Assembly: GCA_050084515.1 (NCBI GenBank)
Contig: CM114271.1
Coordinates: 8,432,001-8,496,000, forward strand
Length of the DNA: 64,000 nucleotides
Direction: 5' to 3'
DNA from: Blasia pusilla
Lineage: Eukaryota
Shown here: piece by piece, positions 35,541 through 64,000 of the stretch
Layout of the letters: every line of letters begins with the position of its first letter
Numbering within the stretch: position 1 is the stretch's first letter
Translations under genes and position numbers: made by a program
The notes under the pieces: generated by a model
Told to the model about the DNA's origin: nothing
What the model saw: the letters and a program-made list of their open reading frames with translations, nothing else
The model's database searches: none

Positions 35541-35583
35541 AAAGGTATCATGACAGATTGGGTGAGGTCTGCGTTTGTCATCC

Positions 35584-39641: not shown

Positions 39642-39661
39642 GATCCCCGACAGCGGCGCCA
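39642..39661 (-). promoter_or_regulatory. Primer binding site, tRNA-Asp type
   Basis: TGGCGCCGCTGTCGGGGATC, close to the Athila-type TGGCGCCGTTGCCGGGGA; 17 nt from the LTR end. Confidence 0.8.
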
Positions 39662-39678
39662 AAAAGTCTTCGACTATA

Positions 39679-40836
39679 TGTAATGTCTAAGTGTTTCTTA
39701 TTTACAGTCAATTGTAGAGTTCGATCCCCAAGAGGATCATTGTGGGATGAAAAGAGAGTATAAAGTGATGATTATGTTGTAAAAGTGTAATTGATTATGT
39801 AATTCAAATGTAGTATTCCAGTAACATCTTCCGATCCTTTCTAGTACCTATGTTTTCTTCTTCAATTCTCTCGAGTGGAGTTTAAAGTACGCTCAGGAAA
39901 TTTGTTCTCTCGATATCTCGGAACCTCACAGAGACCTCAAGAATAAAGCTGGCTTCTCCTACTTTCAGAACTCAATCCGTCGGGGCAGGTTACTCTCTGT
40001 CAAACAGATTTCATACAACTTTATGTTGATTATTCCATTGATGAGAAAGGTTACTTTGATTCACTCTCTTCACTCATGCAGACCCAAAAAGAATATTTAG
40101 ACATAAGCATCGCACATCAGAATGAATGAATGAATGCTTTACTACTCCATCAAGAATTGGAAGACTTCAAAGTATATGCAAGCTCGAGAGGGTACAACTC
40201 TCTTGCTCGGACCATTCCTACAGCATAAGAACTTCATGAGCGAATGATGATAATAGCTTCTGTCCTGTTTCTTAAATATTCTCGAGAGGAGGAGCGTTTC
40301 TATGATCCGAAGCGTTCTCGAAGAAGTTGGTGTCTCTTCAATATTTGTAACTACCTAGATCTATGGTTCTCTTAGCTTTTAAATCGATCCCTATGAATCC
40401 AGCGGTACAAAATCTGTTCTAACTACCAATTTGATACAAAGGGTCGCCCTTTCCTAGTCTAATTGTTTAAACTATGTGTCGGTTGAATCACAATCATCTT
40501 TGAGCATTGCGCTAAATTTCGGAGGGCGAAATTCTTCATTCTCTTCTTAGCCGTGCTTCGCTCAGAGCGAAGTACCTGATATCTGAGCCGTTGAGCCGTT
40601 AGACTTTGTTAAGCTTCGCTAAGCTTCGCTTTGATCCTTTATACTTCTTTACAGCTTTTGATTCTCCTCTAAAGCAAATCCTTGATCTTCCATCTCTCTG
40701 CCTTGTCTTAGGAGCTTGGTGACTCACTTATTCTTCTTCATAATAATAGATAATCATAATTAAAATCATAATATACAAGAGTCTTTGTTGAATAAAAAGA
40801 TATATTCTTCAAGATTACAAAATTGTGGGTATCACA
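39679..40836 (-). repeat. 5' LTR
   Basis: Direct repeat of 30857-32022; TG...CA ends. Confidence 0.95.
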
Positions 40837-42387: not shown

Positions 42388-43398
42388 GTGAGTTCAATAC
42401 ATCGTCCTTTCGAGCTCATGCTGAGAATTTTTTGAAAAGTTGCAGCTCAAGATGAGAATCGTGGGAACTATAGGGATTTCAAACCGCAGAAACCAAGCAA
42501 CCTGTCGGAAACCGACATGTTGCATTAAGAATGTTTGTGCAACCTGTCAGAACTTGACTGGTTACATGAGTGTCACACCCGTCGGAGCGCAATAGGATGC
42601 ATGAGGAGTGTTTGTACATCCTCTCTGAACCTGATTGGTTGCATGAGTGTGCAACCCGTTGGCTCTCGACGGATTGCAAGTTGGATGTATACAAGGCCTG
42701 CAAATAGTTTGACCCGGATGGGTTGCAAGCTGCAAGGCTGTGAGTTAACTCGGTTTGCGACCCGTCGGATTCCAAAAAGTTGCGTCTGTTTGCAACCTGT
42801 CAAATTCCGACTAGTTGCGTCTATCTCCGACTCCTCGCATTTAGACAGGTTGCGGATGTCTCCAACTCCTCGCATCCAGACACGTTGCATCAGTGCAAGT
42901 TAACCGAAATCCGTCGAATTCTGATAAATTGCAAAAGTTCGTGTGTGGACACTTCTTGCAATCCAACAAAATCCGACAGGTTGCACAAGGATTTTCGAGA
43001 CCGGACCGGCCTGCTTCTTACAACCCTTCCGATTTCGATGGGTTTTAGAAGCAGGTTCCTGGGTGCTGGATTGTCGTAAGAGGTTCTTGGGACATTCCAG
43101 GGATGTCTCCAACTTGCAACCCGTTTCAAGTCGGAGGCTGGAAAGTCCATGTGTGATCCGTCAGATTCTGATGACTTGCACTTGGATCTTCCAGCCCGGA
43201 GTGGCCAAAGTTACTTGCAACCTGTCTGAATCCGATAGGTTGCACTAGGTGGTTCCTGGATGTTGCAACATATCGGAAACCGATGGGTTGCAGAGTCATT
43301 CATGGGATGCCTCCGACTTGCAACCCGTTTGGTTCCGACAGGTTGCTTTTTTCTTTGCTCAAAGAGCTATTTTTGTTCCCTTCTCATATTGCCGTCGT
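42388..43398. repeat. Transposase intron filled with degenerate palindromes
   Basis: GT donor at 42388; many CG-decayed GCAACCYGTCGG..CCGACRGGTTGC units; the acceptor region is deleted. Confidence 0.8.
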
Positions 43399-45005
43399 TG
43401 AACATTCATGAAAATACCCTCTATCCCAACACAAGTGGAGCAGAAAATGTTCATTCCTCTTGGAGGTCATCACAAGCATGCCAAAAAATTTCACTTGTGG
43501 AGGCATGCCAACAAGACCAGGCAAGAGAAATGCTACAATCTGCAGCACCCCTTATCTTCCTCACAAAAGGAATAAAAAAAGGAAAGGGGCCTTCGAATTA
43601 CGAGCTCAATATCAAGGCAGTTGTGAGATCTGGTGATGAGAAACTCTATGTGGAAGCCTTCAATCGGTGCGTAGCAGGAACTCCCCTTGAGCAAGATGTC
43701 CATATTGGTGGGGATATTTGTAGGCGTGTTTCAAGACGCCCCATACAGATGGTGGTTGAGCAGTCCGAGCGAGACTCGTGGAGACCAGATAAGTATCTTG
43801 ACTTCAGGCAAGTGAAGAGGCAACATCGAGGAACGAACCCAGTGATTGATTTGGATGAAGAAATTATGCCGCCCAGGTATTCGGAGACGACCACAGCCTG
43901 GATTCTGGGGACTCAAAACCTTTGATCGTTTCACGAGGACCGAGGATCAATTGAAGTACTTCTTATGCCCAAATGAATCCTGCGCTTTCTGAAAGTCTTA
44001 TCCAGCTGCAATTGGAGCTCCACTGAATACCCCCACAATTTGGCCCATTGCCGCACGTATGAATTGCACTCAAGACGAAGTGGACAATCTTACAAGTGCC
44101 CGCTTCAGACTCGTAGATGCAGGAAGTTTGGAGCATGTTCGTATTACAGAGACCTTTGCATTTTGTTTTCAACCCAAGATTGATGTCAACATGTATCCAG
44201 AGAAGGTGGATGATCTCAATCCACTATTTCTCTTTGAGTCTAGAAATGGGGTGAAGAGAAACAGAATGTGTAGGCCAACGGTGGAGAGAGCAAAGCGAAT
44301 CGCATTAGCTCGGGAGGCAAACATGAAAATCATCGCCACAAAAGATGCTCATAGTGGAAATTGAATAGGAAGGATGTATTGGGTCAGGAACAACATTGTA
44401 AATTCAAGTATCACAGGGGTGTATGTGGTGCACATCTGTTGCTTTCCCACATGTTCCGGTGATGACTTTGTCCAAAGAGATATAAGTGGGAAAAGGTATT
44501 TCCCTTGTAAGCACATGTACCATGTGTTGCTTGTAGTTTTAAGAGAGTCAAAGGTAGGAGTAGGAATCCACCAACCAATTCTGTCCCTCAAAGAAGTGCG
44601 AAGTATTTTAAACAAACCACTTTGAGGATGCAAAATGAGGTCTTAGATTATACTTTCATTTTCCAGAACCTTCATTTTGAGCTTGAACTCTATTCAGCCA
44701 AGGAAAAATGATAGATTTTTTCCAAACCTTGGATGGAAAATCTGATTTGTTCCACATTTATGATACCAATGATTTTTCAGTTTTTTAAATTTTGTGAAAA
44801 TTGCAACACGCCGGATTCAGACGGGTTGCCAAAATATGGAAGAGGAAAAAAAAATGTGTGGGAGTGCCTAAGCACTTAGAAGAAAAGTGCAAAAAAATTC
44901 ACTCAATAGGTTTCCTCTCTTCAATCCCACGGAAACTCTCTTCAAAAGAAAGTATCTCTTTGGGTTGAAGGTAGTCTCCTCTCTTCCTCTCCTCTTACCA
45001 CGCCT

Positions 45006-46850
45006 TGTCAGAATCCGACGAGTTGCAATATTTTTCTGGAAAATGTTCATCATGCAACCCATCTAAATACAACGGGTTGCTATTTGGTTCTGTAAAAAGT
45101 TCATCATGCAAGCCGTCACAATTCGACGGGTTGCTATTTTGTTCTCAAAAAAATTTATCATGCAACCCGTTGGAATCCAACGGGATGCTACTTTGTTCTT
45201 AAAAAAGTTCACCATGCAACACGTACCAATCCAACAATTTTTCCTGAAAAATTTCAATCGTCCAACCCGTCGGAACCCGACGGGTTGCGAGTTCCTTAAA
45301 GTGAGATAAGTTAATTTTGCAACTCATAGATGTGTAGCTGAAACTCCTCCTCTTGAGAAAGACGGCCACATTGGTGGGGATATTCGTGGACGTGTTTCGA
45401 GACGTCTCATACATATAGTAGTAGAGCAGTCTGAACGAGACTCCTCGAGACCTGATGAGTATATTGACTTCAGGAAAGTCAAGCGTCAACATTGCGGGAA
45501 GAATCCAGTGATTGATTTGATCGTTTGGATGATGAAATTACCCCGCCCAAGTATTCGGAAACACCGGACTGCTTCCAAATTTGAGTTGAAGTATCTTCTG
45601 CAAAATCAGTGAATGTTTTATTTCAAAATCCCTCTATTGTTGGAACTTCCCACCATACAGTGTCGGAGGTAGTTCAACAATATGGGATTGTGGTCATTGA
45701 GGTTGATTGCAACCTCAAGCAGTGGCATATTTCTTGAAGCAACCCAGGAAGTGCACCCACTTGCAGGGCAGGATCGGATGAGATTAGGAGAGCATAATCC
45801 ACTTTCCTGAATAAGAACTGTAGAAGGACAGGACGACCACTGCCAGGTTTTTGGGGGCTGAAAACCTTTGGCAGGTACGAGAATCGGGGATCAATTGAAG
45901 TACTTCTTTTGCCCTAAGGAATCGTGCACTTTCCAGAAGTCTTATCTAGTTGCCATTGGAGCTCCAAGTACCACTCATGAGGAAGTCAAAAATCTTACAA
46001 GTGTCAGTTTCAGACTCGTAGAGGGAGGGAGTTCGGAGCATGTTCGCATTACACAGAGTTTCACATTTCGGATTCAACCCAAGATTGATGTCAACATGTA
46101 CCCAAAGAAGGTGAATGATCTCAATCCACTATTTCAATTTGAGTCAAGAAATGGAGTGAAGAGAAATGAAATGTGTAGGCAAACGGTGGAAAGAGCAAAG
46201 CGAATCGCATAAGCTTGGGAGGCAAATATGGAAATCATCGCCACAAAAGACGTTCATAGTGGCAATGGAATAGGAAGGATGAGTTGGATTAGGAACAACA
46301 TTTTGAATTCAAGTGTGACAGGGGTGTATAAGATACACATCTATTGCTTTCCCACATGTTCCTATGATGACTTTGTCCAAAGAGAGACAACTAGGAAAAG
46401 ATATTTCCCTTGTAAGCACATGTACTATGTGTTGCTTGTAGTCTTAAGGGAGTTGAAGGTAGAAGTAGGAATCCACCAACCAATTTTGTCCCTCAAAGAA
46501 GTGCGAAAGTATTTTAAGTCCCTCAAAGTATTTTAAACAAATCACTTTGAGGATGCAAAATGAGGATTACATATGTATAGATTTTTTCCATATGGAAAAA
46601 GTGATTTGTTCCACATCTGTGATTCTAATGATTTTTCAGTTCTTTTTATTTTGTGCAACTTGCAACCCGTCAGATTCAAACGGGTTGCTAGTATGTGGAA
46701 GAGGAAAAAACATTTATGAGATGATTAAGCAAAGAGAACAAAAGTGCAAAAATATTCATAAAACAAATCTTCCTCTCTTTAACCCAACGGAAACTTTCTT
46801 CAAATGACATGAAACTCTCTTAAAAAAAAAACATCTCTTTGGGTTGAAGG
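45006..46850 (+). mobile_element. Fourth, partial copy of the MULE-type element (palindromes plus transposase 3' end with SWIM)
   Basis: 45868..46536 is homologous to 43940-44625 (FPTCSYDDF...FPCKHMYYV); cut at 46850 by the Copia LTR. Confidence 0.85.
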
Positions 46851-49800
46851 TGTATAAAACTGTTAAACAAGCATAACTGGTGGAAAACGACTCTCACACA
46901 CACATACCACCATGGAGAACAAAATTTGCAATGACAGAAATTGAGTGGAGGCTGATCCTCTTCTCAATTATATAGGGTATGTACAAGCAATCCTAACCCT
47001 ATCCTTAACCATAGTCTCAAGTTAGACTAATTGTGATTAACTAACCCTAGTTAAGATAATCTTGCTTAACTGACTAACCAAGATTAAGCTTCCCTACTTT
47101 GTGTGAATACCAAATATAGCAGTTCAAGTGTCTCATGAGCTTGACTGTAACTCAATCTTCGATACTCCCCCTCAAGCTCATATCATATCTCTAACGCCTA
47201 AATCCTTTGTAAACATCTCAAACTTATCTCTAAACAATTCCTTTGTAAAGATGTCAGCAATTTGCTGATCTGTACCTATATACATAAGATCAATTTCTCC
47301 TACAAGCACTTTCTCTGTGATAAAATGATAGTGCACCTCAAGATGCTTTGTACAAGCATGAAACACATGGTTATTAGCAAGCTTGATGCTACTAATATTG
47401 TCTGCATATCTTACACTAGGTCCTAAGTTACTAAAACCAATCTCAACAAGTAATCAATGAAGCCACACCGCCTCACATGCTGCATTGATTGCTCCTCTGG
47501 ACTCAGCCTCTGTTGAAGATAAAGCAACTATAGGTTCCTTTTTTGAAGCCCAACTTATAGTTGCGCTTTCCAAAGTAAATGAATAACCAGATGTGGAGTA
47601 TCGATCAGACACGCTTCCTGCCCAATCAGCATATGTGAATCCCTATAATTGAAAACTCCGAGAAGTTTCAAATTGAAGCCCGAATTGAATAGAGAAGTTC
47701 ACATACCGCATAATCCTTCTCACAACATCAAGGTGAGATTTTTGAGGTGCTTGCATAAAAAGGGTCACTAGGCCAACAGCAAAGCTCAAATCTGGTCAAG
47801 TTATAGTTAGATAGATCAAACTTCCAACCTTGTGCCTATACATATTAGAATCTGCGAGGAGCTCTCCTTCATCCACTCTTAGCTTCACCCTCTGGTCCAA
47901 CGGTGTAAAGATTGGCTTACAAGTTGTCATACCATATTTTTAAAGCATATGAAGAGCATATTGTCCTTGTAGTAACCACATGCTCTCTCCAACCTTGATA
48001 AACATAAACTCAATACCAAGGAAGTACTTGAGTTCTCCCAAGTCCTTCATATCAAATCCTGCTTGTAACTTAAGCTTGACTTGTTGTACAATTTCTTAAG
48101 TACTCCGAGTAATCAATAGATCGTCAACATACAACACAATGAGAACTATATGATCTTGTCCTCTCAAGACATATAACGAGGAGTCAAAATCACATACCCT
48201 AATACCCAACTCTTGTAGGACGTATGTAATCTTGCCATACCAAGCTCTTTGAGCTTGTTTAAGCCCGTATAGAGCTTTCTTCAACCTGCATACGCGAAAT
48301 GGAAACTTGAGATGCTCGTATCCAGGTGGTTGAGTAATATCTATCTCCTCGTATAGATCTCCATTCAAGAAGGCATTCTTGACGTCCATGTAATGTAATA
48401 TTCACTTCTTACTTACTGCAACTGCAACCACTATTCTCGTAGTCGCCATCTTTGCAATACGGCTAAATATTTCCTCATAATCGATACCATATTGTTGTGC
48501 ATAGCCCTTAGCCACCAATCTTGCTTTGTATCTGTTAATTGTACCATCTTAATTGCATTCGATTTTGTAAACCCATTTGCAACCAATAGCTTCCTTACCT
48601 GAAAGTATATCAACCAGCTCCCATGTTTGTTGATGTCTTAATGCAGCAAGCTCTTCCTCCATAGCTTCAATCCATTCGGCTTTACTCACAACTTTTACAA
48701 AACAACTCGGGTCCTGCTCTTGAAGGATAGTCATCATATATGCATGATGTGTCGCAAGGAAATCTTCATTTATGAATCTATGAACTGAATGTGTAACTCT
48801 ACTTGATCTACGAAGTTTTTGTTCAGAGGTAGATGCCTATGACACTTGACCCGAGCTCTGACTAGTGTCAACACATTGAATATGTACTCTTCCCGTCCAT
48901 GGACTCACAGATTTAATTGATCAATCTTCGACCTTTCCTAATCCTGCACTAGTACTTGGGGATGTTGAAGACAATGTATGTTGGTTTATAGTCATATTCT
49001 CCCCCTCAACAGACAAGTTTAGAGGTGGAATAGGCTCAGATGGAGCATACCATGACTTTAGCTCATCAAAGACAACATCCCGACTAATAATGAGTTGCCT
49101 AGAGGATGGAATGTAGCACTTATATCCCTTAGTTCCATCAGCATAGCCAATGAAGATACATCTTTCAGACTTAGGGACTAATTTCTAACGTCTCTCAGAA
49201 GGAACATGAGCATAATAGATAGAGCCAAATACTTTCAAGAAGGAAAAATCAGGTTTACTTCCTGTGAAGACTTTGAATGGAGTTTTATCATGAACTCTTG
49301 TTGTTGGAGTTCGGTTGATTAAGAAGAATGCACATGCTACAGCCTATGCCCAATACACCTAAGGCATGTTCTTCTCATTCAGCATAGCTCGTGCTGCTTC
49401 AGCAATATGTCAATTTTTCTTCTCACCCACTCCATTTTATTGTGGAGTGTAACGGCAAGTCACTTGACGTTGGATGCCATTCTAACGTAAATAGTCATCA
49501 AACTATGTTGAAAGATACTCTCCTCCTCCATCATAACGCAATTTTAGAATGTGTTGTCCAGTCTGCTTCTCTACTAGAACTCTGAATGTTTGGAACACTG
49601 AGAATACCTCTGACTTGGCTTTCAGAAAGTATACCCATATATATCTAGAGAAGTCATCAATAAATGAAACAAAGTACTGGAAACCACTAAGGCTATGTTG
49701 TGATGTTGTCCACACATCAATGGGGATCAACTCCAATATCTTGGATGCTCTTCTACCTTGCTTTGGAAAAGGAAATCTAGCTTGTTTTCCAAATTGGCAA

Positions 49801-50410: not shown

Positions 50411-50446
50411 GGTGCGGTAAGAGGAGAGGAAGAGAGGAAGAGAGGA

Positions 50447-53400
50447 CTGTACTCATTAAGTAGTGCCTGTCGTAGTCTTGCGACCATAGACCCCGCGCCC
50501 TGGTTGGACGGTGCTTGAGACTGGGATGGGTGTAGAGAGAGAAGCAAGTGAAGAAGGTACCATATGAGAGGAGGGAGACACTCTCATATAGTGTGAGTGC
50601 TGACCAAACAACGTGTTTGTGCGGAGCTTCCAAGTGTCAACCAAGAAGCTCTTCACCACACCATCTACTTTACCTGATTGGGATCCCCAATAGACATTAC
50701 TTACTTGTGCAGCAGCTTTGGGCAATGAATCAAGGCTCTGAATGTGTTGAACAATTCTGGTGCTACCGCTTAGCAATACCAAAGATATGCTCTTGCTCTG
50801 TGTGTTGTGAATTTTGCGCAGAGACCAAGTAATGACTAGAGGTTTCGTCCCCATCATCACACAAGGCGCAAGATTTTAGTTGTGTTCCCATCCCGCTTTT
50901 CTTATGGTTCAGGGGATTGCCCCATCCTGAACTTGAACTTGAGCCGGGTTCCCAAGCAAGGGTTCCCGCAAATAGTTCTTGATTCGCCCTCTCCGGATAT
51001 ACCGTCAAAAGAGAGGTCGACATTTTCATGGCTTCCTCCATGTTGTTCTGCTTTGTGAGCGTTTGCCCACCGCTTTGGTTATGGTATCCACGAATGCTTT
51101 CTCATCTTGCTCCCCACAGTTCAGGCCTGCTGAGCTTGGATGCTTGCACAATCTCTTGAACCTTTTTCGCCCAAGATTTGGCCTGCTTTTACGGGTCTTC
51201 TTTGGGTCCAGGTTTTCCCAATCACCTCTTTAGGATAGCGATGGGAGTCCATTGTCTCCAGCTGCCTCCGGCATTTCAACTTGGCGATGTCACGTCTATC
51301 CTCCAAGGGTTCCACACCTAGTTCGATCTCACACCAACGCTGGTGTTCGTGATGAAGTTGACATCATACCCCAAACGCCTTCACCACACTGACTTCAAGC
51401 CTATCCCTTTGTTTGGTGTTGGCATCCCACACTCTGCCCGTATTCCAGCGAGGGACGAATGGTATGCAAAATGACACAGCGCTATACTACGATGTGATGT
51501 CCCGGCACTGTAGAAATCTGGACAGACCGTTCACCTTCTTGTGGCCTTTCTCAGTAGTCTTCTTAATGTGTGCATCCCACATGCAATCTTCCGAGAATTC
51601 TATGCCCAAATAGGTGTAGGTAGCCACACGGGGGATCTCTTGGTCACCCCAGTACCACTTTTGGTCTTGGTCCTCCTCCTTGCCATTGAAAATCATCACA
51701 CCGCACTTCAGTACATTTGCCTCCATGCCCCACATGTCACACCAGATTTTGGTCAGGGAGATCATCTCTTGGAGTTTCTCTCCTATTTCCTCGAGGCCAC
51801 CAAAGTCATCAACAAACATCAGGGAAACAATAGAGCTGTTGCCCATTCGTATGCCTAGTCCACTATCCTCCATTTCTTCCAATAGGGAATTCACGAAAAT
51901 GTTGAAGAGGGTGGGGGAGAGCGGGCATCCTTGAGCCACTCCTTGCTTGATGTCGAATGTCCCACTCTATTGGCCATTCACCAGAACTCTACTCCTTGTG
52001 TTTTGGTACATCTTCTCCACCACCCTCCACATTTTCCCTCTCAGCCCCGCCTTCCACAAGCTATAAGAAAGCCCGTCACGCCATACAGTGTCATATGCCT
52101 TCTTCAGGTCCAAGAAGAAGCAATAGGTGGGTTTCCCCTCTTTTTTCCTACCCTGGATGATCTGACTGAAGGTGAAGATGTGGTCCACGCATCCTCGGGC
52201 TTGCCGGAAGCTAGCCTGGCCTTCCTTGATGACAGAATTCTCCTCCAGGTGCACAGAGATCCTATTGTTGAGTATACGGCAAAGGAGCTTCCCGACTACA
52301 CTCAGCAATGTAATACCCCTGTAGTTTCCAGGGTCTTCTCACTCACCCTTCTTGAAGAGGTTCACGATGACTCCCATCCGCCATCTTTGTGGGATGACTT
52401 ACGCCCGCTGGACTGGTTGAAGAGACTCACTAGAGAACGAGCCATAGCAAAGATCGCCATACTTCAACAGCTCATTCACAAGCTCATCACCACCTTTGCT
52501 TTGTGGTTCACAAGTTCTTTGATCGCTGCTCCCACCTCAGCCAGGAAGAACCAATCATTATATGCGTTGCCCACTCAACCTCATCATCCGCCTTCTCCCG
52601 TTGTATCTTTACAAAATCCTCCACCACCCTCTCAAGTTCGCTCTTCAAGGGATGTCCGAGCGGGCTTCTGCCTAACTCCTTGTAATGGCCTTCCAACACA
52701 TGTCGGATCTATTTATTTGTGGTCACCATTCCACCGTCTTTTCTCTTCAAGGCCTTTACGTCGTTTCGTCCCTGGCCTTGCTCAATTTCTGCACTTCCAT
52801 CCGAACTTTTTTCGATTCTTAGTGAAATTCTCATTGATGGATGAGTATGTGGCTTGGTTCATTTTCTTCTTGTGCATGCGCACGAGAATACGGGTTTCCT
52901 TGCGTAGGGCCACATACTCTGCCCACAAGGATGCATCGTCCCTGTCTTTGGCACTTGTGACATACGCTTCCCTTCGTTTGGCAATGGCTGCCTTGAGTTC
53001 CAAGGACCACCATTTGACGGCTCTGCCGCATATTATCAATTTCCTGCCGACAGCAATCTTGGTGGCATCTGTCACTCCACACTCCCACCATGCTAGCACC
53101 ATGTCCACACTTGTTCTTGTGAACCCAAAGGTCTTGACGGTAGATTCAATGAAAGTGTCAAATGCCAAGAGATTTTCTTCTAGCTTGCCAATGTACACCT
53201 TCTTGTTGCCCTCATCTTGGAAGTCCTCTATCCTCCATTTCTTGATCACCCTCTTCACTGGTTTGGTCGAGCATTTTAGCCTTTGTTGCAACTCTATCCA
53301 GACCAATGAATGATCCGATCTTCCAATGTCTCGTCGCATCCCTTTGTGATCTTGCCCCTGCGTGTGTAGAGTTCCTCATCCACGGCTATGTAGTCCACAA

Positions 53401-55199
53401 TGGAGCTCTCATTCTCCTTGAAGTTGACCCTAGTCCAAGCCGGGGATCCCACCTTATGCCTATCATTAAGTGCCATGAGTTGAAGTTCCCTCAACATCGT
53501 GAAGTCGTGTGCCATTGCCATTCACTCTCACATCTCCAAACATCCCGATCTCCGCTTGGGGATCGGTGCCTTGCCCCAACTAGTGTTGAAGTCTCCCAAA
53601 GCAAGACTATGTTCCCCTTTGTCCGGAACCCAAGGCAATCAGTTTTCACACTATCAAACGCTGCCCATTCTGCAGATTCACTATTTGTAGGCATGTAAAT
53701 ACACCCGATATACATATCCCATGAGTTGCACTCAGCTCGGACTTTGACCCATATCTTTGTGTTCATACTCGAGGCCCTATCTTGATGATCTCACACCTAT
53801 CCACCATGAAGTCTCGATGAAGAACCCGACACCCTTCATACCTCTGTTGTTGTTCGCCTGGAGTCTTTGCACATCTTTCCAAACCATGCATAGTGTGGTA
53901 CATGGGGTATTTCCATTAACTTGGTTTCCCAAGTTTCTGACCCCCATATATGTATTTGATTTTTCAGCAAAACTTCAGCAACCTCCAGTGCTTCATTGCA
54001 TGGGTCGGTCCCACGAAGTTCTAGGTACTCAAACGGAGACTGTCACTAAGTGGGTTGGGGATCGGCGGGCACGCTTTTGGCGTCGTGTGTGGTCGCTGCG
54101 ACATGGAACCTCTTCATGTGCAGGCTCTTCATCGCTGGTCCCTTGGAGAACACTAAAGACATTATGTGTGTAGATCACCAGCGGTTTTGTGGAGATGGGC
54201 CTTTCCTTCAAGTGGAACCACCCTCGACTACCATAGCCCTCGGTTGTACCCACGTCTCAGATCTTGAGACACATGGTTTTTGTTGCAAGCCAAGTATTGG
54301 CCTCCTCGCCCTTGATAGACGCCTTGAAGATACATTGATTGCCGTTCATCATCCGAGTAACCCCAAAGCAGAGCAGGGTGAATTGAAAGCCCAAAGTCGC
54401 GCACATGATCTTAAATGAGACAAAGTCTCTGTGGGGACGACACCGAAAATGATCATGTGGAACCGTGGTCTCCTCTTGTAGACCAGATTGAACTCGCTGC
54501 CCAGGTCCGAACTCCGGGGGCCTTTGAGCGTCTCACATAAACATGCCGGTATTCCCCACCCGGCTTGGGGATCTTTGGGCTTTGGTATGCGCCTTTGATA
54601 GGTGAACGATACTCCTCACACAGGCTTGGGAGGACGGAGATATGTTGGGCTCAAGGCCGCTGATTATATGTAGAGGTTTGGCAAACAACTGATTTAGGAT
54701 CGGGGAGAATGTTTAAGCTCCCGGCCGAGAGTCAGGACAGGGGACTCGCTGTCCTATTTGTCTTGGAGGGTGCCTCCAGCGGCAGGGTGCCCAAAGAGAG
54801 CCCGCTTGTTACCCCTAGAGATCATCACTACCTGCCAAGGTGAACAGCCCTGGCATTCAACTGCAGAGGAGGGCCCGTGAATCCAGTTTCAAAAGAAGGA
54901 GAGGTCTCCATTTCTCCAACTAAGTCCACTGGATACCTTACTTGTGGCACAACTGCCACAAGTCACATGGATTACATGACACACTAATCCACACCTACCA
55001 ACCAGGGGAACGACATCGCAAGCTCACTCTGAGTTCCAACTACAAAGACAATGGGCAACTCGACAGAGAGTATTGCTATATTGCTTGCACGCGGTTCACT
55101 CATTATAAGCTACCCATGAGCAGTGCTTTAGAACATGTCGTCCCAACATACCAGGCCTGTTGGGACTTGTAGTTTTGGGGTTTAGACCCAACCAGGCCG
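50447..55199 (-). mobile_element. Non-LTR retrotransposon (LINE; APE endonuclease, RT, C-terminal CCHC-like)
   Basis: APE (IGCIYMP, SIVDYI, SDHSLV); RT (FFLDLKKAYD, AQGCPLSP, LMFVDD, YTYLG); CALCDDGDETSSHYL. 15-bp TSD gagaggaagagagga at 50432-50446 and 55200-55214. Confidence 0.9.
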
Positions 55200-55594
55200 G
55201 AGAGGAAGAGAGGAGAGAGGAGAGAGGAAGACAGGAGACAGGAAACTACCTTCAACCGAAATAGATACTTTTTTTTTAAGAGAGTTTCCGTTGGGTTGAA
55301 GAGAGGAAACTTTTTGTTTGAATTTGTTTGCACTTTTTTTTTCATATATTAAGCCGTCCCACAGTTTTTTTTTCCTCTTCCATATTTTGGCAACCCCTCT
55401 GAGTCCGACGAGTTGCAAATTGCACAAAATTTAAAAAACTGAAAAATCAGTGGAATCATAAGTGTGGAACCAATCACTTTTTCCATCTAAGGTCTGGAAA
55501 AAATCTATCATTTGCCCCGGGCTTAATAGAGTTCAAGCTCAAAGTGAAGGTTTAGGAAAAATAAAAGTACAATCTAAAACCTCATTTTGCATCC

Positions 55595-58500
55595 TCAAAG
55601 TGGTTTGTTTAAGATACTTCGCACTTCTTTGAGGGACAAAATTGGTTGGTGGATTCCTACTCCTACCTCCAACTCTCTTAAAACTACCAGCAACACATAC
55701 TACATGTGCTTACAAGGGAAATACCTTTTGCCACTTGTCTCTCTTTGGACAAAGTCATCACATGAACATGTGGGAAAGCAACAGATGTGCACCACATACA
55801 CCCCTGTGACACTTGAATTTCTGATGTTGTTCTGACCCAATACATCCTTCCTATTCCATTGCCACTCAAGACATCTTTCGTGGCGATGATCTCCATTTTT
55901 GCCTCCCGAGCTGATGCGATTCGCTTTGCTCTCTCCACCATTGGCCTACACATTTTGTTTCTCTTCACCCCATTTCTAGACTCAAACAGAAATAATGGAT
56001 TGAGATCATCCACCTTCTCTGGGTACATGTTGACATCAATCTTGGGTTGAATACGAAATGCAAAGGTCTCTGTAATGCGAACATGCTCCGAACTTCCCCC
56101 GTATACGAGTCTGAAACCGGCACTTGTAAGATTGTCCACTTCGTCTTGAGTGCAGTTCGTACCTGCGGCGATGGGCCAAATCGTGGGGGTATTCCCGGGA
56201 GCTCCAATGGCAGCCGAATTAGACTTTGGGAAAGCGTAAGATTCATTTGGGCAGAAGAAGTACTTCAATTGATCCCCGGTCCTCGTGAAACGATCAAAGG
56301 TTTTGAGTCCCCAAAACCCAAGCAGTGGTCGTCCAGTCCTTGTACAGTTCTTATTTAGGAAAGTGCTGCATGCTCTCCTAATGCCATCAGATCCTGCCCT
56401 GCAGGTGGGTCCACGTCCTTGGTTGCTCCGAGATATATGCCACCGTTTTAGGTTGCAATCCACCTCAATTACCGGAATCCCATATTGTTGAACCACCCCA
56501 GTGACAGGATGTTGGGAACTTCCAGCAACGGAGGGCTTTTCAAATAAAACATTCACTGATTTTGGAGAAGTAACTCCATCACAGATTTGGGACGGGTCCG
56601 GGGTCCCCAAATACCTGGGCGGCGTAATTTCCTCATCCAAATCAATCACCAGATTCGTTCCTCGATGCTGCCTCTTCACCTGCCTGAAGTCAAGATACTT
56701 ATCTAGTCTCCACGAGTCTCGCTCGGACTGCTCTATCACCATCTGTATGGGACGTCTTGAAACCCACCCACGAATATCCCCACCAATGTGTACGTCTTGC
56801 TCGAGTGGAGTTCCAGCTACGCACCGGTTGAAGGCTTCCACATACATTTTTTCATCACCAGATCTCACAACCGCCTTGACATAGAGGTCGTAGATCGACG
56901 GCCCCTTTCCTTTTATTATGCCTTTCGTGAGGAAGATATGGGATGCTGCAGACTGTAGCATTGCTCTTGCCTGGTCTTGTTGGCATGCCTCCACAAGTGA
57001 AATTCGTTGGCATGCTTGTGACGACCTCCAAGAGGAATGAACACTTTCTGCTCCACTTGTGTTGGGGCAGAGGGCATTTTCATGAATGTTCAATCCTTGC
57101 AACGACGGCAATGTTAGAAAGGAACGAAAATAACTCAGGAGTCAAAGAAATAAGGGACCTGTCGGAACCAGACGAGTTGCAGGCCGGAGGCATCCCATGA
57201 ACGACTTTGCGACCCGTCGGGTCCCGACGTGTTGTAACCTTAAACCCACCTACTGCAACCCGTCGGAACCCGACGGGTTGCAAGGCTGAGGCATCCCATG
57301 AACGACTCTGTGACCCGTCGGGTCCCGACGGGTTGCACACTCGCGTTGCACCAAAAATCTGGATGCAACCCGTCGGTTTCCGTCGGGTTGCACACTCGGG
57401 AAACCCGTCGCATCCGACAGCTTGCTTGGTTTCTTGGGTTTGAAATCCATATAGCTCCCACGCTTCTCACCCTGAGCTACAACTTTACAAAAAATTCTCA
57501 GCGTGAGCTTGACAAGACAAAATAGTGAACTCACCTGCCGCATGAAGTTTCCCCATTGTCTCATACGTACAGTCCACCAACTCAACCAAGAGCACAATTC
57601 TTTGTACTTCCCCTCAATCGCATGCTTCCTCCACCACCCATGAAGTTCTTCCTGGCATTCCATGGCCTGCTTCAAGGTTTTGCTGTCCTTGCAGCGTTGG
57701 AGTAGAGTGACATGCTCTGTCCTCTTATTCTTCTTGATGCAAGATTTGGTGTACCGGGTCACAGACTGTTGCCAATGGAAAGCATCCGACCTTTCCCTCT
57801 CCGGTTGAACCTCTCCACCCCAGAACACTTCCCAGATAGCAATCCACCCAGGTTGTGCATTGTCTCCCATGAACCCATAAATTTTCGGAGGTGGCCTTTT
57901 GTTTTCCTTCACCACATCCAATAAGAGTAACCAACACATCTTCAAACTGCCAACGTTTTCTGCCTTTACTTCACAGACAAATATAGTTTTGAGTCCCTTC
58001 TCCACATGGTCATAAACGTGAGCACCCATCGTCAACCATCCGTTCAGCACCCTGTAGCAAATATCAAAGCTTACCCAACTCCCGTAAAGATCTTCCCCTT
58101 CCCTCATTCGATCTATAAGATCGAGGCCACTCGACAGACCTATGGTTGATATTTTGAAGACATAGGCCCTGGAGCCCTCGCCTCCTTGGCCCATGAACTG
58201 CCATCTCTGAATGAATGGAAATCTGGAGTTGGCCTTGATTCTGGCGATGGCATCCATTTCGGCCGTCTTTCCATCCAGAACTCGTATTTGACGCAACAAA
58301 TTTCGGAAGCATTCAGGATCAGCGAGAAATGCGAGATTTTCCCAGAGTTGTTTCTCCTCAACCGCCGTGATCTTGCCCTGTCCAGGGATTCCAAGCAATT
58401 GTTCACAAATTTGTGATGCCGTTGTGAGCTTGATCACTCCGGGCTTTGAACCCGGAGAGTTTCTGTAGACCTCGGCTACTTTCTTCGCCACATCCTCCTT

Positions 58501-59546
58501 GATGTGTCTTGAATTGCATCGGTCACAGGATGAGTGTGGGAGCCAACATGAACTGCCAGCCTTGTATATTCTGACGTGGAGCCCAAGTCGTGGACAATGA
58601 AAAATATGTATGCAGGACACGCTCCAACGCAAAAGGGCGATGCCTGACAATGAGGACATCGATGGCCTCCCGGCGGTATGGTGGCACCCACCTCGTATGG
58701 AGTTTCTGCATTCTTGGGAGGGAATTACGACGTATTGACTCGCCCATTGCGCTCTGGATACGGGCATGCTCGACTTCTAGACTCCAAGGCTCCCACGCAT
58801 TGGCGGCGGGAGACAATCCAAGGACCATCTGGAATGGAAGCACTAGTCCATTGAAGCCTGCACCATCGATGACAATCAGACTTTCTGTCCATACCCTTTA
58901 GGCGTCCTCCATCCTTCTTTTGAGCAAGAGCAACAAGTGGAGGCAACTCAAAAATGCAATTACCATCGTACGTGGGCGGCAGCTCGTCGACAAGAATGTG
59001 CTTGAACATTTTCAAGGCCAGAGACAAAAGCAAACTTTTGCCTGATACTCGCAAGAGGAACGAGTAGGCGGACAAAGGGCCCGATTGGTGTCTGACAGAT
59101 CCATTGAGGTTGATAACATACGGAATCTCTTCAGCAAGAACAACATTGTTACGAGCGTGCGAAGTTGGAGTCGAAGCCGGATCTACAGAGCTTGAAGTTG
59201 CAAACGTAGAGCTCGGAGCACTAGGAAATTCTAGATCGTCTACTTGGGAAACAGACGAATTTAGGGGCAGGCCGTAAACTCTGTATTGACCATTTGCTAG
59301 AGGTAGGAGATTCCATACTTTACGGTCTGAGGTCACATGCTGGACCGTCTCATCTATTATGTCTTCCGTACCGTCCACCCTAACATCTTTGGATACAAAG
59401 ATGATTCCAATTTGGAGAAGAAATCGAACAGACAGAAAATTTTCATCCACTACTATGAAAGACTCACGAGTTTGGGGTTGAATGATTTCTGATTGAGGAA
59501 GGGCCTCCAGATGACTGCCACAAGGGAGCTTAACATAATTATCCAT
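55595..59546 (-). pseudogene. MULE-type transposase (copy 2), two exons
   Basis: Exon 1 59546-57535 has a Cys/His-rich N-terminus (CPHC..C..HTH), WVSFD, FMGD and DAFH. Intron 57534-57097 (acceptor AG mutated to AA). Exon 2 has NTSGAES and SWIM. A few frameshifts. Confidence 0.88.
57097..57534. repeat. Transposase intron with palindrome array
   Basis: For example tgcaacccgtcggaacccgacgggttgca near 57254; several copies between 57155 and 57425. Confidence 0.9.
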
Positions 59547-59819
59547 TCCAAGAAGATTCCAATAGGAGGAGACTGAGAATGAGAATGAGAATGAGAATGA
59601 GAATTTTTAATTTATAGTGAATAGGAAAACAGATATACTCTGTGATTTTCTTGACAAGATGAATTCGGTGGGTGACATTATCGACACAATGGATCCAGTC
59701 GTCAGAACACATTCAATTCTGTTGCAATATGTTACCGGATTTGGGAAGCAGAGGGTTGCGAATCACACTTGGAAACCGTTCGAGTCCTGGTAACTCAAAA
59801 ATTACCCGAAGCTAATCGA

Positions 59820-60372
59820 AGCCTGTAACCCGTCGGCTTCGGACGGGTTGCACGCTTCTGCCAAACATTGTCGAAGCGAGCAACCCGTCGCTCTCCGAGG
59901 AGTTGCTCAGATACCGCTCCTTCTTGCCCGAAGATGCCGGAGGCGTGCCAACCGTCTGTTCCCGAAGAGTTCTGCGGGTGCCTCACCTATTTTCCCAAAG
60001 ACGGCAAGGCGTGCAACCCGTCGCCCTCCAACGGGTTGCGCAAGGGCCTCGCCTTGTGGTGCTTACATGAAGTGTGCAGCCAGCCGGCCTCCGACGACTT
60101 GCACAGGAAGCCCGCATTCTTAACCCTTGACGAGGGAAGCGTGCAACCCAACGGTCTACGACGGATTGCCTGGGTACGTCCCATTCCCGTCCCAAACACG
60201 GCAGAGGCGCGCAACATGTCGGTCTCCCACGGGTTGCGCGGGTACCTCGCGTTCTTTTCCGAAGACAACGGAGGCGCCCAACCCGTCGGTCTCTGACGGG
60301 TTGCTCGCGCACATGGTGACGTTCCCAGGATGGCGGAGGCGGGCAACCTCTCGGACTCCGACGGGTTGCCAT
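59820..60372. repeat. Intergenic palindrome array, 63-68-bp period
   Basis: Unit starts at 59880, 59947, 60013, 60076, 60143, 60211, 60277 and 60343. Confidence 0.9.
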
Positions 60373-60429
60373 TTTTCACCTCCGGACTTCCGTAACCTCC
60401 GGCACGTCGCCGTCGAGAGGATGACGGGA

Positions 60430-60466
60430 CCCAACGGTCAGCCCAACGGCTAGAAAAGTATAAATA
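60430..60466 (+). promoter_or_regulatory. Two MSA-consensus motifs plus TATA box
   Basis: cccaacggtca (60430-60440) and cccaacggcta (60442-60452) both fit YCYAACGGYYA; tataaata at 60459. Confidence 0.6.
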
Positions 60467-60758
60467 GGGCAGAAATCGCTCATTTCCGGTTTCTCATTTT
60501 GTGATCTTCATTCCTCACTCTCCCGCGCAGTAGCTGATCAGATATGAAGGGGCATTTCACACGGCGACACATCGCGAGTCGATAGGAGGGAACGAGAGCG
60601 AGACGGTTCGACCGAACAAGAGCGAGACGGTTCGACTACACGATCACGAGACGATTCGAGCTACCCATCAAGGCGATTCGAGCTACCCATCTTGACATCA
60701 GCAAGGCGACTGATCAAGGGATTCGTCGTGGACATAGGTGGAGGCATTTCCAGAAAAA

Positions 60759-63700
60759 ATGACGAGGAAAAAATCACAAGCCAACAAGTCTTGGAGCTTC
60801 ACTCCGAAGTCCATTAGGACTCCTGCGTCAGCATCTCCTGGGCCTCATTCGGCGAATGAAATTAGGCAACAGGAAATCGAGGAGCGGGAAAGGGAAGCGG
60901 AGATGCACAACCAAGTTCTTCTTGCGAGACGTGTTCAAGAGGCGCTCGATAAACAGAACGCAGAGGCTGAGACGTCGCAGGCCTTGAAGAAAAGGATCGC
61001 CGACGAAAAGAGAGAAAAGAAGCGTATGGAAGCGTCAGTGAGGAGAGCAAAATTGGCTAAAGCGAGGAGGGAAAAAGCGATAGCCATTGACGATAGCCAT
61101 GCCCGTCCAACCAAAAGTTTTGAGATGCGGGAAATGTCCCCCATGAAGTCCAGGGACATAATCAACATAGTGGAAACGCCAGAATTTCAAATCGATGACA
61201 ACGAGGTCATGAGGACCGCCAGTGTGGAGATGGTGGACTTGACCGAAGAAGCCGGAGAGCGGTTATTCTCGACTCCAAGCCCGGCGGAGGACATCGACCT
61301 CTATCGGATCGACGAGTTCCCAGTCGATCTGCCAGCTTCTGTCTCAGACAAGTTGGCTAGTCAAGAAACCGACCCCATTTTCAAGCGGGTAAGAGAGGAT
61401 CTGGGTTTTTTGAATTATGTGAATTGCAATTTATTGGGAATTCAGTGTAGCTTATTGATCTTGTCCCGGTTCTGACAGGTGGTAAAGCAGATGGCACTCA
61501 TGGAGGGCCACAACGCCCCGAGGATTCCACTCTGCCGATTGCGGACAATGGAATATGTCCGCGAAATTCAGTTCGATGAGGACATCGTGAAGCTTAAACA
61601 ATCGGCGGCGACAACATCCTACGTCGACAGCTTTCCTCCCTTCTATGTTCAGCCTTATGACGAGCATGGAACCCAAGCTCTGGTTATGGAGGAGGACTTG
61701 GAAAAGCTCGACACATTTTGGAGGATGCGAGACCAGGATTTCAGAAGGCAAGTCGAGGGCACGGAATTTAGCTGGATGAGGAATCTGCATTTCTTCATCT
61801 GGGATGGAAATCACAGGTTCATGGCGTGGACCAAGTTTGCAGAGGAGCGGCCCAACTCATTGGAGGCACATTTTTGCGTGAAGGCAGTGGTCCTTCACCC
61901 ATTCCGTCATCACATGGCGACGGTGGAGATGGCAATGCATGCCATGAACACGTGAGTATCTTTAACACTTACGCAACTCGTCGGGACGGTTGTTGGGATG
62001 CTTTAACACTTACGCAACTCGTCGGACTCCGACGAGTTGCTCGATTGATGAATGGGTTAGGTTTTTTTTTGCTGAAAGCAACTCGTCGGAGTCCGACGGG
62101 TTGCTCGACTCGACGCTTTTTCGGATGTTTTTTTAAGAATGTAACTCGTCGGACTCCGACGAGTTGTTCGATTGACCACAGATTTAATTAGTTTTTGGCC
62201 CAAAGCAAACCGTCGGAGTCCGACGGGTTGCTCGACTCGCCGCCTTGTCAGGATGTTTTTTGAAGAATGCAACTCGTCGGACTTTGACGAGTTGTTCGAC
62301 TGACTGCAGATTTAGAATTTTTTTTGCCCAAAGCAACCCGTCGGAGTACGACGGGTTGCTTGCTTCGAAACTTTTTTTGGCCGAAATCAACCCGTCGGAG
62401 TCCGACGGGTTGCATTCGGAAGTTGGTTCCCCAAATTTCGCGTCAAATTGCAAGTTTCCATTCAATTGCGCAACCTGTCGGACTCCGATGCGTTGCTATG
62501 TTCACGTTAGTATGTTCAGTTGCACAACCCGTCGAAGTCCGACGGGTTGAAACCAGGCATTAGCAAATCTGAACGCAATCCGTCGGACTCCAACGGGTTG
62601 CATCATTTAGCTCGTTCCTAGAATCCGACCTTGAGTTGTGACGACTCCGACGGGTTGCACGAACCCATGTAATTTCCTGACGGGTTGAGTTTGGATGTGC
62701 AGGATTGTATCGGAGGGGAATGTCATCCACCACTAGATCCATGACTGCGATCGGGTGAGGAAGATGCTTACGACGCACCTGAGAGAGTATAGGGGGTTCT
62801 TGGGCGATGCCCTTGTCAATCAGATGCTTGCAAAGGGTGCTCAGATTAAAAAGAAAACTTGGGCAAATAAGTTTATTTCCCAAGATGCAACTGTAACCAT
62901 CCTTTGCTGGTTGAAGATACAGGCCGCGAAGAAGAGCGCTGCACTGGAGCTGGAGCGGAGGGAGAAGGTATTTGCGTCTGAGCGCGCGAAATTCATCCAA
63001 GCTGTAGTATCTGCAGCAACAAAATATACGGCGAGCAAGATGCAGCGATACATCAGCATTCTCAACCCCGAACTTGGTCCGGAGTCCTACAAGGAGCTGA
63101 AGGCGATTATCAAGCGCCAGCGGAAAAGGGATGAAGATCCGCATGGTCGGATTGGGGAGAAAGTGTCCTTGGATCGCGTGCATCGGTTTGCGTTGTTCGG
63201 CATAAGCGAAGAGGATCTGACTGATGAAAATCAGTCTCGAGGGCACAAAGGCCCAGAAGAGGGCGGCACACCATCCTCCGGGTGTGTCCAATCCAGTGAT
63301 CTCCCACTGGCTACGCGAATGGTCGTTCTGGGACGCGTTGCGGGTTATCGGGAAGTCCGTGCTGGACGGTCTACAAGCGGAGCTCAGAAGATTAGAGCCC
63401 ATCCCGGATGAAGCAAACCTTGAAAGTTCTGGAGATTTCGAGGTTTGGCTCGACGACATCCGGACAAGCCAACCAAAACCCAGGATTCAAGACAATGTTC
63501 AAGGTTTGCGTCCTCCCTCAGCGAGCTTGACGAAGAAGTAGAGGGGAACAAACGGGATCAAGCAAAGAAGAAGCGAGATCTGAGCAGACGGCCGATGCGT
63601 TCGACTAAAAGCGCCCAACGGATGGTCTTGGTACCTCGTCCGTGTAAGAATGCAGTGCGTGGGGAAAATTACCGGCAGCCTTGAAATTGTGGGCTTCGCC

Positions 63701-64000
63701 GCCCAATGCAGAGACATTCTCCATGTACGACATGGAGATGGGGCAGCACATGTCCGATTGATAGATGGAGAATTTCCCCATTTGGCTCGACTTCAACGAC
63801 CCTGAAGACATCACTGATAAGGATTTACGAGTGCTTCATGATGCAGTGGCCTCAGGACAAGACGACATCCCCAATTTCGTGCAGCTTGAAGACTTCTTCG
63901 GAGGAGATGCAGAAGAGCAGGCCCACGAGACAGCTGAGTTGGCTTCCAAGGTCCGCACAACCAAAGACAAATCCACAGCGGGTCTCAAAGGCAACGCGAG
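60759..64000 (+). pseudogene. Spliced accessory gene with ParB/Sulfiredoxin-like domain (copy 2; 3' end outside the window)
   Basis: Exon 1 60759-61388; GT-AG intron 61389-61478 (phase 0); exon 2 61479-61951 (RIPLCRL..VR...FFIWDGNHRFMAW...AMHAMN); intron 61952-62702 (phase 2, restores the frame); exon 3 from 62703 with stops and frameshifts. Confidence 0.8.
61970..62660. repeat. Intronic palindrome array, 63-64-bp period
   Basis: Unit starts at 62014, 62078, 62141, 62205, 62269 and 62333; a perfect core lies at 62388-62412. Confidence 0.95.

Follow-up and report, generated by a model that had tools for sequence, protein, structure and literature searches.

The 64-kb stretch of Blasia pusilla contig CM114271.1 analyzed here (assembly GCA_050084515.1; referred to as the window, with its first nucleotide as position 1) holds copies of a transposon that carries two genes head to head, one for a putative transposase and the other, which we call gene 2, for a large accessory protein, together with arrays of a 27-bp palindrome. 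Four copies, A to D, lie in the window, and two of them, C and D, are fragments. They are placed as follows:

~55200-64000, continuing past the window edge: copy A, genes head to head
25141-45006: copy B, inverted relative to A and interrupted by a long terminal repeat (LTR) retrotransposon
25141-30856, minus strand: gene 2 half of copy B and the start of its transposase gene; gene 2 at ~29071-25141, palindrome arrays at 26954-27915 and 29510-30217
40837-45006, plus strand: remaining transposase gene of copy B; intron palindromes at 42497-43346, element end near 44952-45006
45007-46860, plus strand: fragment C, 3' part of the transposase gene and element end
5287-9951, minus strand: fragment D, exon 1 at 7266-9364 (73% identical to A), start of exon 2 at 5287-5455, palindromes at 9473-9951

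Within copy A, the following features were recognized:

55200-55270: transposase-side end, a GA-rich stretch followed by the conserved ACCTTCAACCC block
55595-57096 (acceptor approximate), minus strand: transposase exon 2, with the putative catalytic Glu (NTSGAESVH) and a C-terminal SWIM-like CxC...CxH
57097-57534, minus strand: transposase intron, with a palindrome cluster at 57209-57410
57535-59546, minus strand: transposase exon 1, with ATG at 59546, an N-terminal Cys/His cluster and a putative RNase H-like core
59547-60758: intergenic region between the divergent genes; palindrome array at 59825-60369, TATAAA (conserved in B) at 60459-60464
60759-61388, plus strand: gene 2 exon 1, encoding an N-terminal region that is charged and of low complexity; intact in A
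61479-61951, plus strand: gene 2 exon 2, the predicted ParB/sulfiredoxin-fold domain (IPLCRL, WDGNHR, AMHAMN), intact in A
61952-62702, plus strand: gene 2 intron 2, with a palindrome array at 61973-62658 in 64/128-bp tandem units (Tandem Repeats Finder)
62703 onward, past the window edge at 64000, plus strand: gene 2 exon 3, matching residues ~300-690 of long homologues (tblastn)

Comparison of 50411-64000 with the rest of the window by blastn (30 high-scoring segment pairs, 23 of them at least 80 nt long) aligns A 55227-64000 with B 44994-25594 in inverted orientation, at 86-89% identity over the transposase gene, 82% at its 5' end and 71-73% over gene 2, in agreement with an initial description of the locus, made from the sequence and its open reading frames (the first-pass annotation), as two diverged copies with a common head-to-head layout. 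Fragments C and D, which that annotation overlooked, are 77% identical (45331-46804) to A 55274-56823 and 73% identical (7280-9353) to A 57519-59621, respectively. The element had also been taken to span all of 50411-64000, but the homology among A, B, and C begins only at ~55200-55246 and nothing aligns to the left of 55227; we therefore reject 50411-55200, which has reverse-transcriptase (RVT_1) open reading frames instead, as part of the element. The transposase-side end is marked by a 21-nt ACCTTCAACCC block that occurs three times in the window (55248, 44952, and 46831) against an expectation of 0, and is present in A, B, and C. It is the sole element end visible for copy A, the opposite end lying beyond the window in A and being lost in B, which is cut at ~25141 by LTR-like sequence. 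Fragment D ends in the intergenic array: its palindromes reach 9951 and there is no gene 2 beyond them.

Both genes are spliced, with the exons that the first-pass annotation had proposed for gene 2. In the transposase gene, on the minus strand, the exon 1 donor is CAG/GTGAGT at 57535/57534 and the exon 2 acceptor lies near 57100, its phase not fixed; the sole transposase homologue found in word-index protein searches, one of which gave none, is P0130 (41% identity over 63% of the query, E 1.5e-77), which reads through at the exon 1/intron junction. In gene 2, the ATG at 60759 is conserved in copy B, the donors are CGG/GTAAGA for exon 1 (61388/61389) and AC/GTGAGT for exon 2, and the exon 3 acceptor is TGCAG immediately before 62703. 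The GT/AG signals are kept in B at three of these four junctions, namely both donors and the exon 3 acceptor. The motifs singled out previously in exon 2, RIPLCRL...YVR, FFIWDGNHRFMAW, and AMHAMN, are all present.

The two genes have diverged under purifying selection, with dN/dS of 0.06-0.30. For gene 2, A versus B gives 0.21 for exon 1 (136 codons), 0.11 for exon 2 (119 codons), and 0.06 for exon 3 (115 codons) at a dS of 1.0-1.24 over the exon parts compared, and for the transposase A versus B gives 0.24 in exon 1 and 0.25 in exon 2, A versus D 0.16, and A versus C 0.30. Both are therefore real genes that were functional while the lineages separated, and gene 2 is a real, selected gene of the element. 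These data bear directly on the idea that gene 2 is a captured host gene or passenger in the style of Pack-MULEs, with no role for the element. Mutator-like elements (MULEs) are known to gain extra open reading frames (PMC6446971), and fragment D has no gene 2; against this stand the dN/dS of 0.06-0.21 at a dS of ~1 between element copies, the conserved intron positions, and the element's own palindrome filling an intron of gene 2. Moreover, among the 47 homologues whose alignment extends to the end of exon 2, 26 break off no more than two residues from it, a pattern to be expected of multi-copy genes with poor annotation, the others going on with exon 3-like sequence, and comparable accessory genes are described on several transposon superfamilies (PMC12477816; 10.1101/2025.02.11.637652). 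We therefore regard a passenger origin as very unlikely.

Exon 2 of gene 2 was proposed to be ParB- or sulfiredoxin-like, and its predicted structure agrees with this. The AlphaFold2 model (alignment of 72 sequences) has a predicted local distance difference test score (pLDDT) of 91.6 and a predicted template modelling score of 0.86, and in a Foldseek search of the PDB the first 28 rows listed (ranks 1-42) contain nothing but ParB, Noc, KorB, PadC, sulfiredoxin, and SbnI chains. The top match, 6sdk_A, has an E-value of 6.2e-3, a probability of 1.00, and a template modelling (TM) score of 0.45 normalised to the query and 0.36 normalised to the target; the rows that follow this group are free serine kinase and two hypothetical proteins. 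For the homologue P0006, whose model is confident over residues 93-410, the top matches are once more ParB and Noc, at E 0.04-0.3. Beyond the fold, a Gly-x-(His/Arg)-Arg motif of the phosphate-binding type, placed after the central strand, is found as WDGNHR in gene 2, as DGNHR in 86 and as EGNHR in 13 of 129 homologues, with G111, N112, and H113 nearly invariant in the alignment; we take it to be equivalent to GERRxRA of ParB and GCHR of sulfiredoxin. An Arg is conserved in the first motif, IPLCRL..VR, and no motif of the ENLQR type was seen by eye in the alignment.

Sequence comparison alone points less directly to the same superfamily. The best Pfam match of the gene 2 protein is DUF1015, at E 0.021 and 14.2 bits against a cut-off of 25.8, and sub-threshold matches among the 72 homologues scanned are to DUF1015 (5/72), DndB (2/72), and DUF6551 (1/72), which we take to be ParB-related families of one clan. 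Pfam gave no family above its cut-off for 30 and then 11 homologues, and a PDB search with exon 2 by phmmer returned 0 matches, while a PDB profile search returned only eL24 (E 0.21), which is irrelevant. In a language-model atlas, whose neighbours we treat as a lead and not as a test, those of 61476-61955 include clusters carrying ParB_N, DUF6551, and DUF3723. Thus the anticipated match to ParB or sulfiredoxin was found in structure and not, at a significant level, in sequence profiles. On the predicted structures we accept that exon 2 has a ParB/sulfiredoxin fold. Membership in ParB proper we do not accept, because the CTP-hydrolysis motif is unrecognised and the helical domain that follows the ParB fold in P0006 (residues 273-410, pLDDT 80-96) could not be identified as a helix-turn-helix (HTH). 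Like bacterial ParB, Noc, KorB, and sulfiredoxin (6sdk, 7ol9, 7bnr, 6t1f, 8qa9, and 2rii), the domain would have an N-terminal alpha/beta fold with the Gly-x-His-Arg type motif (DGNHR) at a strand-to-helix turn; unlike them, it is only 8-17% identical to these proteins and has an inserted helical hairpin (model residues ~72-93).

Gene 2 belongs to a sizeable protein family. Exhaustive phmmer with exon 2 over 1.84 billion representatives, clustered at 50% identity, yields 129 homologues at E <= 1e-3 and 41 at E <= 1e-10, the best 37% identical, with the consensus IPLCRL..VR....GY....FYVS....WD..W...FE.....F.VWDGNHRL.AW....H..V....AMH..N; a word-index protein search with exon 2 found nothing. 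Among bacterial and archaeal genomes, 88 pattern matches to the ParB-like domain were obtained, of which 0 were confirmed as relatives. The long homologues P0012 (901 aa), P0014 (1191 aa), and P0032 (864 aa) match exons 2-3 of A and B up to about residue 690, and the window therefore holds approximately the first two thirds of the gene 2 protein. No gene model fusing the two genes was found, as the best match of the transposase pieces among the 129 ParB-like proteins in blastp has an E-value of only 0.38.

The C-terminal region, beyond the window, can be approached through these relatives only. P0101 has a weak Pfam match to N6_N4_Mtase (E 0.0098, 16.3 bits against a cut-off of 26.7) and one to DpnA (E 1.8) over the same 40 residues (390-433), a stretch that resembles motif I of N6/N4 DNA methyltransferases at a non-significant level. 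P0014 (939-993) and P0061 (531-582) share a C-terminal block with D-x-P-[SF]-G (E 2e-4), which may be a degenerate methyltransferase motif IV; neither protein matches a Pfam family at E up to 5, and in the PDB P0014 finds only malate dehydrogenase at E 0.05, which we take as noise. None of the homologues scanned with Pfam gave an oxygenase signal.

The palindrome is the second distinctive component. Its consensus, GCAACCCGTCGGAnTCCGACGGGTTGC, is 27 bp long with 13-nt arms and four CpGs, and the window contains 30 matches with at most three mismatches (0.00 expected) and 82 matches to the 11-nt half-site (0.40 expected). With up to four mismatches allowed, 45 of 45 matches fall inside the element copies (19 in A, 18 in B, 4 in C, 4 in D, and 0 elsewhere), bearing out the suggestion that the element has palindrome arrays of its own. 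In copy A, they occupy 55390, 57209-57410 in the transposase intron, 59825-60369 in the intergenic region, and 61973-62658 in gene 2 intron 2; those of copy B are at corresponding places, the intergenic counterpart being a 67-bp tandem array at 29510-29787. The palindromes are thus element-specific and present in every non-coding segment, that is, subterminally, in the transposase intron, between the genes, and in gene 2 intron 2. High information content inside the palindrome is in part an artefact of how matches were selected, but in the 25 positions on each side it is ~0-0.4 bits, and the palindrome itself, and not a longer repeat unit, is therefore what the sites have in common. It is kept in A, B, C, and D even at a synonymous divergence of ~1. 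The mismatches are enriched for CpG loss: of 127, 39 convert CpG to TpG or CpA. These fall at 8 of the 26 specified positions and make up about three times the share that equal likelihood of all changes would give. No exact copy of the palindrome was found in bacterial and archaeal genomes.

The combination of a ParB/sulfiredoxin fold with arrayed palindromes mirrors ParB and its clustered parS sites, which together form a system for plasmid segregation. Like bacterial ParB, gene 2 is associated with clustered palindromic DNA sites, and one could imagine a true partition or tethering of excised or extrachromosomal element DNA, as ParB-parS does for plasmids. Unlike in the bacterial systems, the host is a eukaryote and gene 2 has introns. 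Against a partition function, the element has no ParA-like partner gene, inspection of the alignment by eye did not reveal the CTPase motifs of chromosomal ParB, and cut-and-paste elements have no known need for segregation. A partition function therefore appears extremely unlikely to us.

The most serious alternative assigns the palindromes to the transposase, whose Cys/His finger or SWIM would bind them for synapsis or autoregulation, leaving the ParB-fold protein with another job, e.g., an NTP-dependent, nicking, or DNA-modifying step. The N-terminal Cys/His cluster is conserved between the transposase and P0130, a palindrome at 55390 lies ~190 bp from the element end, and gene 2 has no demonstrated DNA-binding domain, all of which would fit. 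Yet the visible end is 2-7 kb away from most palindromes, which sit in introns and between the genes and not subterminally, a distribution that matches the target of the accessory protein in VANDAL21, as described in PMC5735166, and the arrays beside PAG3, as described in 10.1101/2025.02.11.637652. We consider transposase binding doubtful as the reason for the arrays, but an explanation to be taken seriously.

Several observations bear on the class of the transposase. By eye, the motifs follow the order CPHC..C...C...HVGSHTHP; WVSFD, then after 66 residues FMGD (FMGDNAQ); DAFHW; the intron; NTSGAES; and CSC...CKH, with GAES ~125 residues past the second D, across the intron. This order of finger, D..D..(D)xxH..E core, and SWIM corresponds to the MULE architecture given in PMC1702500, consisting of a WRKY-GCM1 finger, an RNase H core with D, D, (C/D)xxH, and E, and a C-terminal SWIM. 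The top atlas neighbour of the transposase is a MULE / ZSWIM1-3 RNaseH-like cluster (0.94, 174 shared features), and all ten of the ten best family-bearing atlas matches are MULE or its clan. From architecture, eye-read motifs, and atlas neighbours, the transposase is probably Mutator-like. The earlier label "MULE-type" holds in these respects, but Pfam offers little for it: MULE, Transposase_mut, and ZSWIM1-3 do not match the window open reading frames or P0130 at E up to 10, the SWIM match is weak (E 1.7, 8.7 bits against a cut-off of 19.6), and PDB sequence searches with P0130 and transposase exon 2 gave nothing relevant.

The missing Pfam match leaves room for a different superfamily in which a SWIM finger or ParB-type accessory genes occur (Zisupton/KDZ, Plavaka/EnSpm, or Sola1, for example), all the more as ParB-like accessory genes are described on Plavaka, Zisupton, Fanzor-encoding, and Sola1 elements (PMC12477816; 10.1101/2025.02.11.637652). 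We find such an assignment decidedly unlikely in view of the uniform atlas matches and the MULE-like motif order; in addition, no Pfam KDZ or CACTA transposase family matches the window transposase open reading frames, and the visible element end does not start with CACTA. As set out in PMC6446971, the hallmarks of Mutator elements are long terminal inverted repeats and target-site duplications of 8-11 bp.

Altogether, we favor, at roughly 55% probability, a model in which the element is a decayed two-gene cut-and-paste transposon, most likely of the Mutator superfamily, whose ParB-fold accessory protein acts on the element's own palindromes. In our model, the transposase would bind DNA through an N-terminal Cys/His module, followed by an RNase H-like DDE core, whose coding sequence an intron divides, and by a SWIM-like finger at the C-terminus, and the accessory gene would be transcribed divergently from the shared intergenic region to give a large protein with relatives of 900-1200 aa. 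This protein, probably dimeric, would recognise the CpG-rich 27-bp palindromes and, bound to them, act in cis on element DNA or chromatin, marking or protecting the element by anti-silencing or epigenetic self-modification, possibly by means of a C-terminal DNA-modifying domain encoded beyond the window. That the accessory protein reads the palindrome and acts on its own element we infer by analogy with VANC and with the ParB-like accessory proteins of algal transposons. Prediction of a complex of two exon 2 domains scored 0.11 against a mark of 0.32 and speaks neither for nor against dimerisation.

Several points weigh against this model. No Foldseek match reaches E <= 0.001 and the TM scores are modest, so that support for the fold lies in the consistency of the matches and not in their strength, and no sequence profile has a significant ParB match for exon 2. 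The helical domain of P0006 aligns to ParB/Noc only at a root-mean-square deviation of 12-17 A, and no HTH or other DNA-binding domain is demonstrated in the accessory protein, while the candidate DNA-binding fingers of the transposase could equally read the palindrome. A C-terminal DNA-modifying domain is only hinted at in the sequences of distant homologues, for a region beyond the window. Linkage of the two genes is seen in both copies that extend far enough, and only in those; the window has 0 intact copies, 0 copies with both ends, and no target-site duplication. Finally, the absence of a Pfam match counts against the Mutator component.

The favored model gains from known systems in which a transposon encodes a protein that appears to address the transposon itself. 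VANC proteins are anti-silencing proteins of Arabidopsis VANDAL elements, which belong to the Mutator superfamily, and their targets often form tandem repeats (PMC5735166). As in VANDAL, a probably Mutator-type element here has an accessory protein, and the palindromes are distributed as the VANC targets are; the likeness is functional only, and that paper does not describe VANC as ParB-like. Closer in domain content is Sola1-1_Ec32 of Ectocarpus, described in PMC12477816 as encoding on the opposite strand a 1104-aa accessory protein with ParB-like and DNA-methyltransferase domains, which its authors propose to bind and modify its own transposon. By comparison with that description, the accessory protein is likewise large (relatives of 901-1191 aa), carries its ParB-like domain N-terminally, and lies on the other strand from the transposase gene, whereas the transposase there is Sola1 and here Mutator-like, and a methyltransferase would fall outside the view of the window, with weak hints in homologues. 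The C-terminal blocks of the long relatives fit the ParB-plus-methyltransferase accessory proteins of Ectocarpus, at a level that is not significant.

PAG3 of red-algal Plavaka elements provides a third comparison, again by description. It combines a ParB-like domain with a 2-oxoglutarate (2OG)-oxygenase and has adjacent tandem arrays of inverted repeats, and the Bostrychia genome preprint that describes it reports PAG genes also on Zisupton, Fanzor-encoding, and Chondrus Mutator elements (10.1101/2025.02.11.637652). The best HHpred match of PAG3 is 7BNR_B at E 0.29 (10.1101/2025.02.11.637652); similarly, the N-terminal ParB-like domain of gene 2 is found only by sensitive methods, with 7bnr also among the top Foldseek matches. 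Both have tandem arrays of inverted repeats beside the gene, and PAG3 too is reported on Mutator elements, those of Chondrus. Unlike in the PAG3 elements, which have the 2OG-oxygenase and a three-gene cassette (PAG1-3), there is one accessory gene and no oxygenase signal here, and the arrays are also inside introns of both genes.

Among Mutator elements, MuDR (mudrA/mudrB) and other two-ORF MULEs also pair a transposase with a second gene of their own (PMC6446971). The MULE clade table in that survey lists second ORFs as unknown, MutB, PMD, or zinc-finger, and none as ParB-like. Unlike in MuDR-type MULEs, the genes here are divergent and the accessory protein would have the ParB/sulfiredoxin fold. 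A ParB-type HTH fused to Dam-like methylases is described in chlorophytes and chytrids (PMC4738411). Our literature search returned nothing relevant naming the DGNHR, IPLCRL, or WDGNHR motifs and, among the papers listed on ParB with MuDR, none that was relevant. It brought up no paper that names ParB-like together with Mutator-like, and nothing decisive on Zisupton and SWIM transposases. The element nonetheless has what was described in algae: an accessory protein with an N-terminal ParB-like domain beside and opposite to the transposase, and adjacent arrays of inverted repeats. The suggestion of the first-pass annotation that the family or architecture was undescribed therefore fails, because papers of 2025 already report ParB-like accessory proteins and inverted-repeat arrays on algal transposons, Mutator included, with Sola1-1_Ec32 (PMC12477816) and PAG3 (10.1101/2025.02.11.637652) in print as far as their descriptions go. 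The element is a further example of a known design, not a new kind, although its host may lie outside the algae.

What the locus adds is a confident structural assignment to the ParB/sulfiredoxin fold, a defined 27-bp candidate binding site, and evidence of long-term purifying selection on the accessory gene. There are few experimental systems for transposon proteins that recognise their own element and counter host silencing, VANC being one, and it was not until 2025 that weak HHpred matches in algae led to the proposal of ParB-like accessory proteins accompanied by arrays of inverted repeats. With 129 related clusters that have no Pfam model, the idea of a self-binding, self-modifying transposon becomes directly testable in vitro.

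A more specific version, rather unlikely as it stands but tempting to speculate on, is that gene 2 represents a large transposon-borne ParB/sulfiredoxin family beyond Pfam that would read its own CpG-rich palindrome and use a degenerate C-terminus resembling beta-class methyltransferases to write or block an epigenetic mark in cis. If true, this would amount to an anti-silencing system that the element addresses to itself, found in this case on a Mutator-like element and perhaps beyond the algae in which such genes were first noted.

The atlas also holds, as a neighbour of 61476-61955, a fungal cluster (0.94, 155 shared features) with DUF3723 in 31% of its members. DUF3723 genes ride on fungal Starship elements. 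The ParB/sulfiredoxin fold may thus recur on other giant eukaryotic transposons; our literature search found no mention of DUF3723 together with ParB.

All element copies in the window are dead, through stops, frameshifts, LTR insertion, and truncation. The transposase gene of copy A is interrupted in exon 1 by an in-frame stop (58725-58727) and a frameshift (near 58480), and its exon 2 has lost 1 nt near 55838 and reads TAG at 55699-55701, where TAC stands in B and C; in copy B, the frame shifts near 41530 and near 42190. At the second Cys position of the SWIM-like CxC (55760-55775, 44475-44490, and 46330-46345), A has Cys, B Gly, and C Tyr, which means that two of these three copies have a damaged finger. 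As for gene 2, a TAG interrupts exon 3 of copy A at 62734-62736, a codon that is TGG in B and a conserved Trp in the homologues, and the reading frame changes several times between 63205 and 63770; copy B lacks 37 nt of exon 2, and its exon 3 contains stops and small deletions. One frame change relative to the homologues (…GISEEDL / KISLEGTK…) is common to A (63205-63235) and B (26370-26340) at ~25% divergence and may reflect an inherited defect, a very small intron that escaped recognition, or recoding at this site.

The divergence of A and B is uneven, with a dS of 0.26-0.29 in the transposase gene against 1.0-1.24 in gene 2, the transposase dS between A and D being 0.96. The two copies are therefore mosaics, which suggests recombination between subfamilies near the 5' end of the transposase gene or in the intergenic array. 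In the intergenic region, ~290 bp before the start codon of gene 2, A and B share a conserved GAAAAGTATAAA box (60453-60469 in A, 29397-29383 in B) in surroundings that are not conserved; it is likely a core promoter. At the transposase-side end of copy B (44952-45330 region), the element abuts 54-bp tandem repeats with palindrome half-sites (45007-45288), and these continue into fragment C; possibly, copy B landed in the palindrome array of an older member of the family.

Two further elements lie in the window:

51487-53790, minus strand: remnant of a reverse transcriptase of long interspersed nuclear element (LINE) type, RVT_1 in two adjacent open reading frames (E 6e-16 and 2.4e-12)
30857-40836, minus strand: LTR retrotransposon of ~10 kb in transposase exon 1 of copy B, with Pfam gag, zf-CCHC, Integrase_H2C2, and rve

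The LINE remnant, with further open reading frames upstream, is within the range first assigned to the transposon but outside the element. The LTR retrotransposon is young: its LTRs (30857-32022 and 39679-40836; ~1.16 kb) are 99% identical. The flanks of its insertion overlap by 8 nt in copy A coordinates (59084-59091), which may represent its target duplication. The LTR-like piece that truncates copy B at ~25141 (24604-25136) is diverged and inverted, with 72-82% complementarity.

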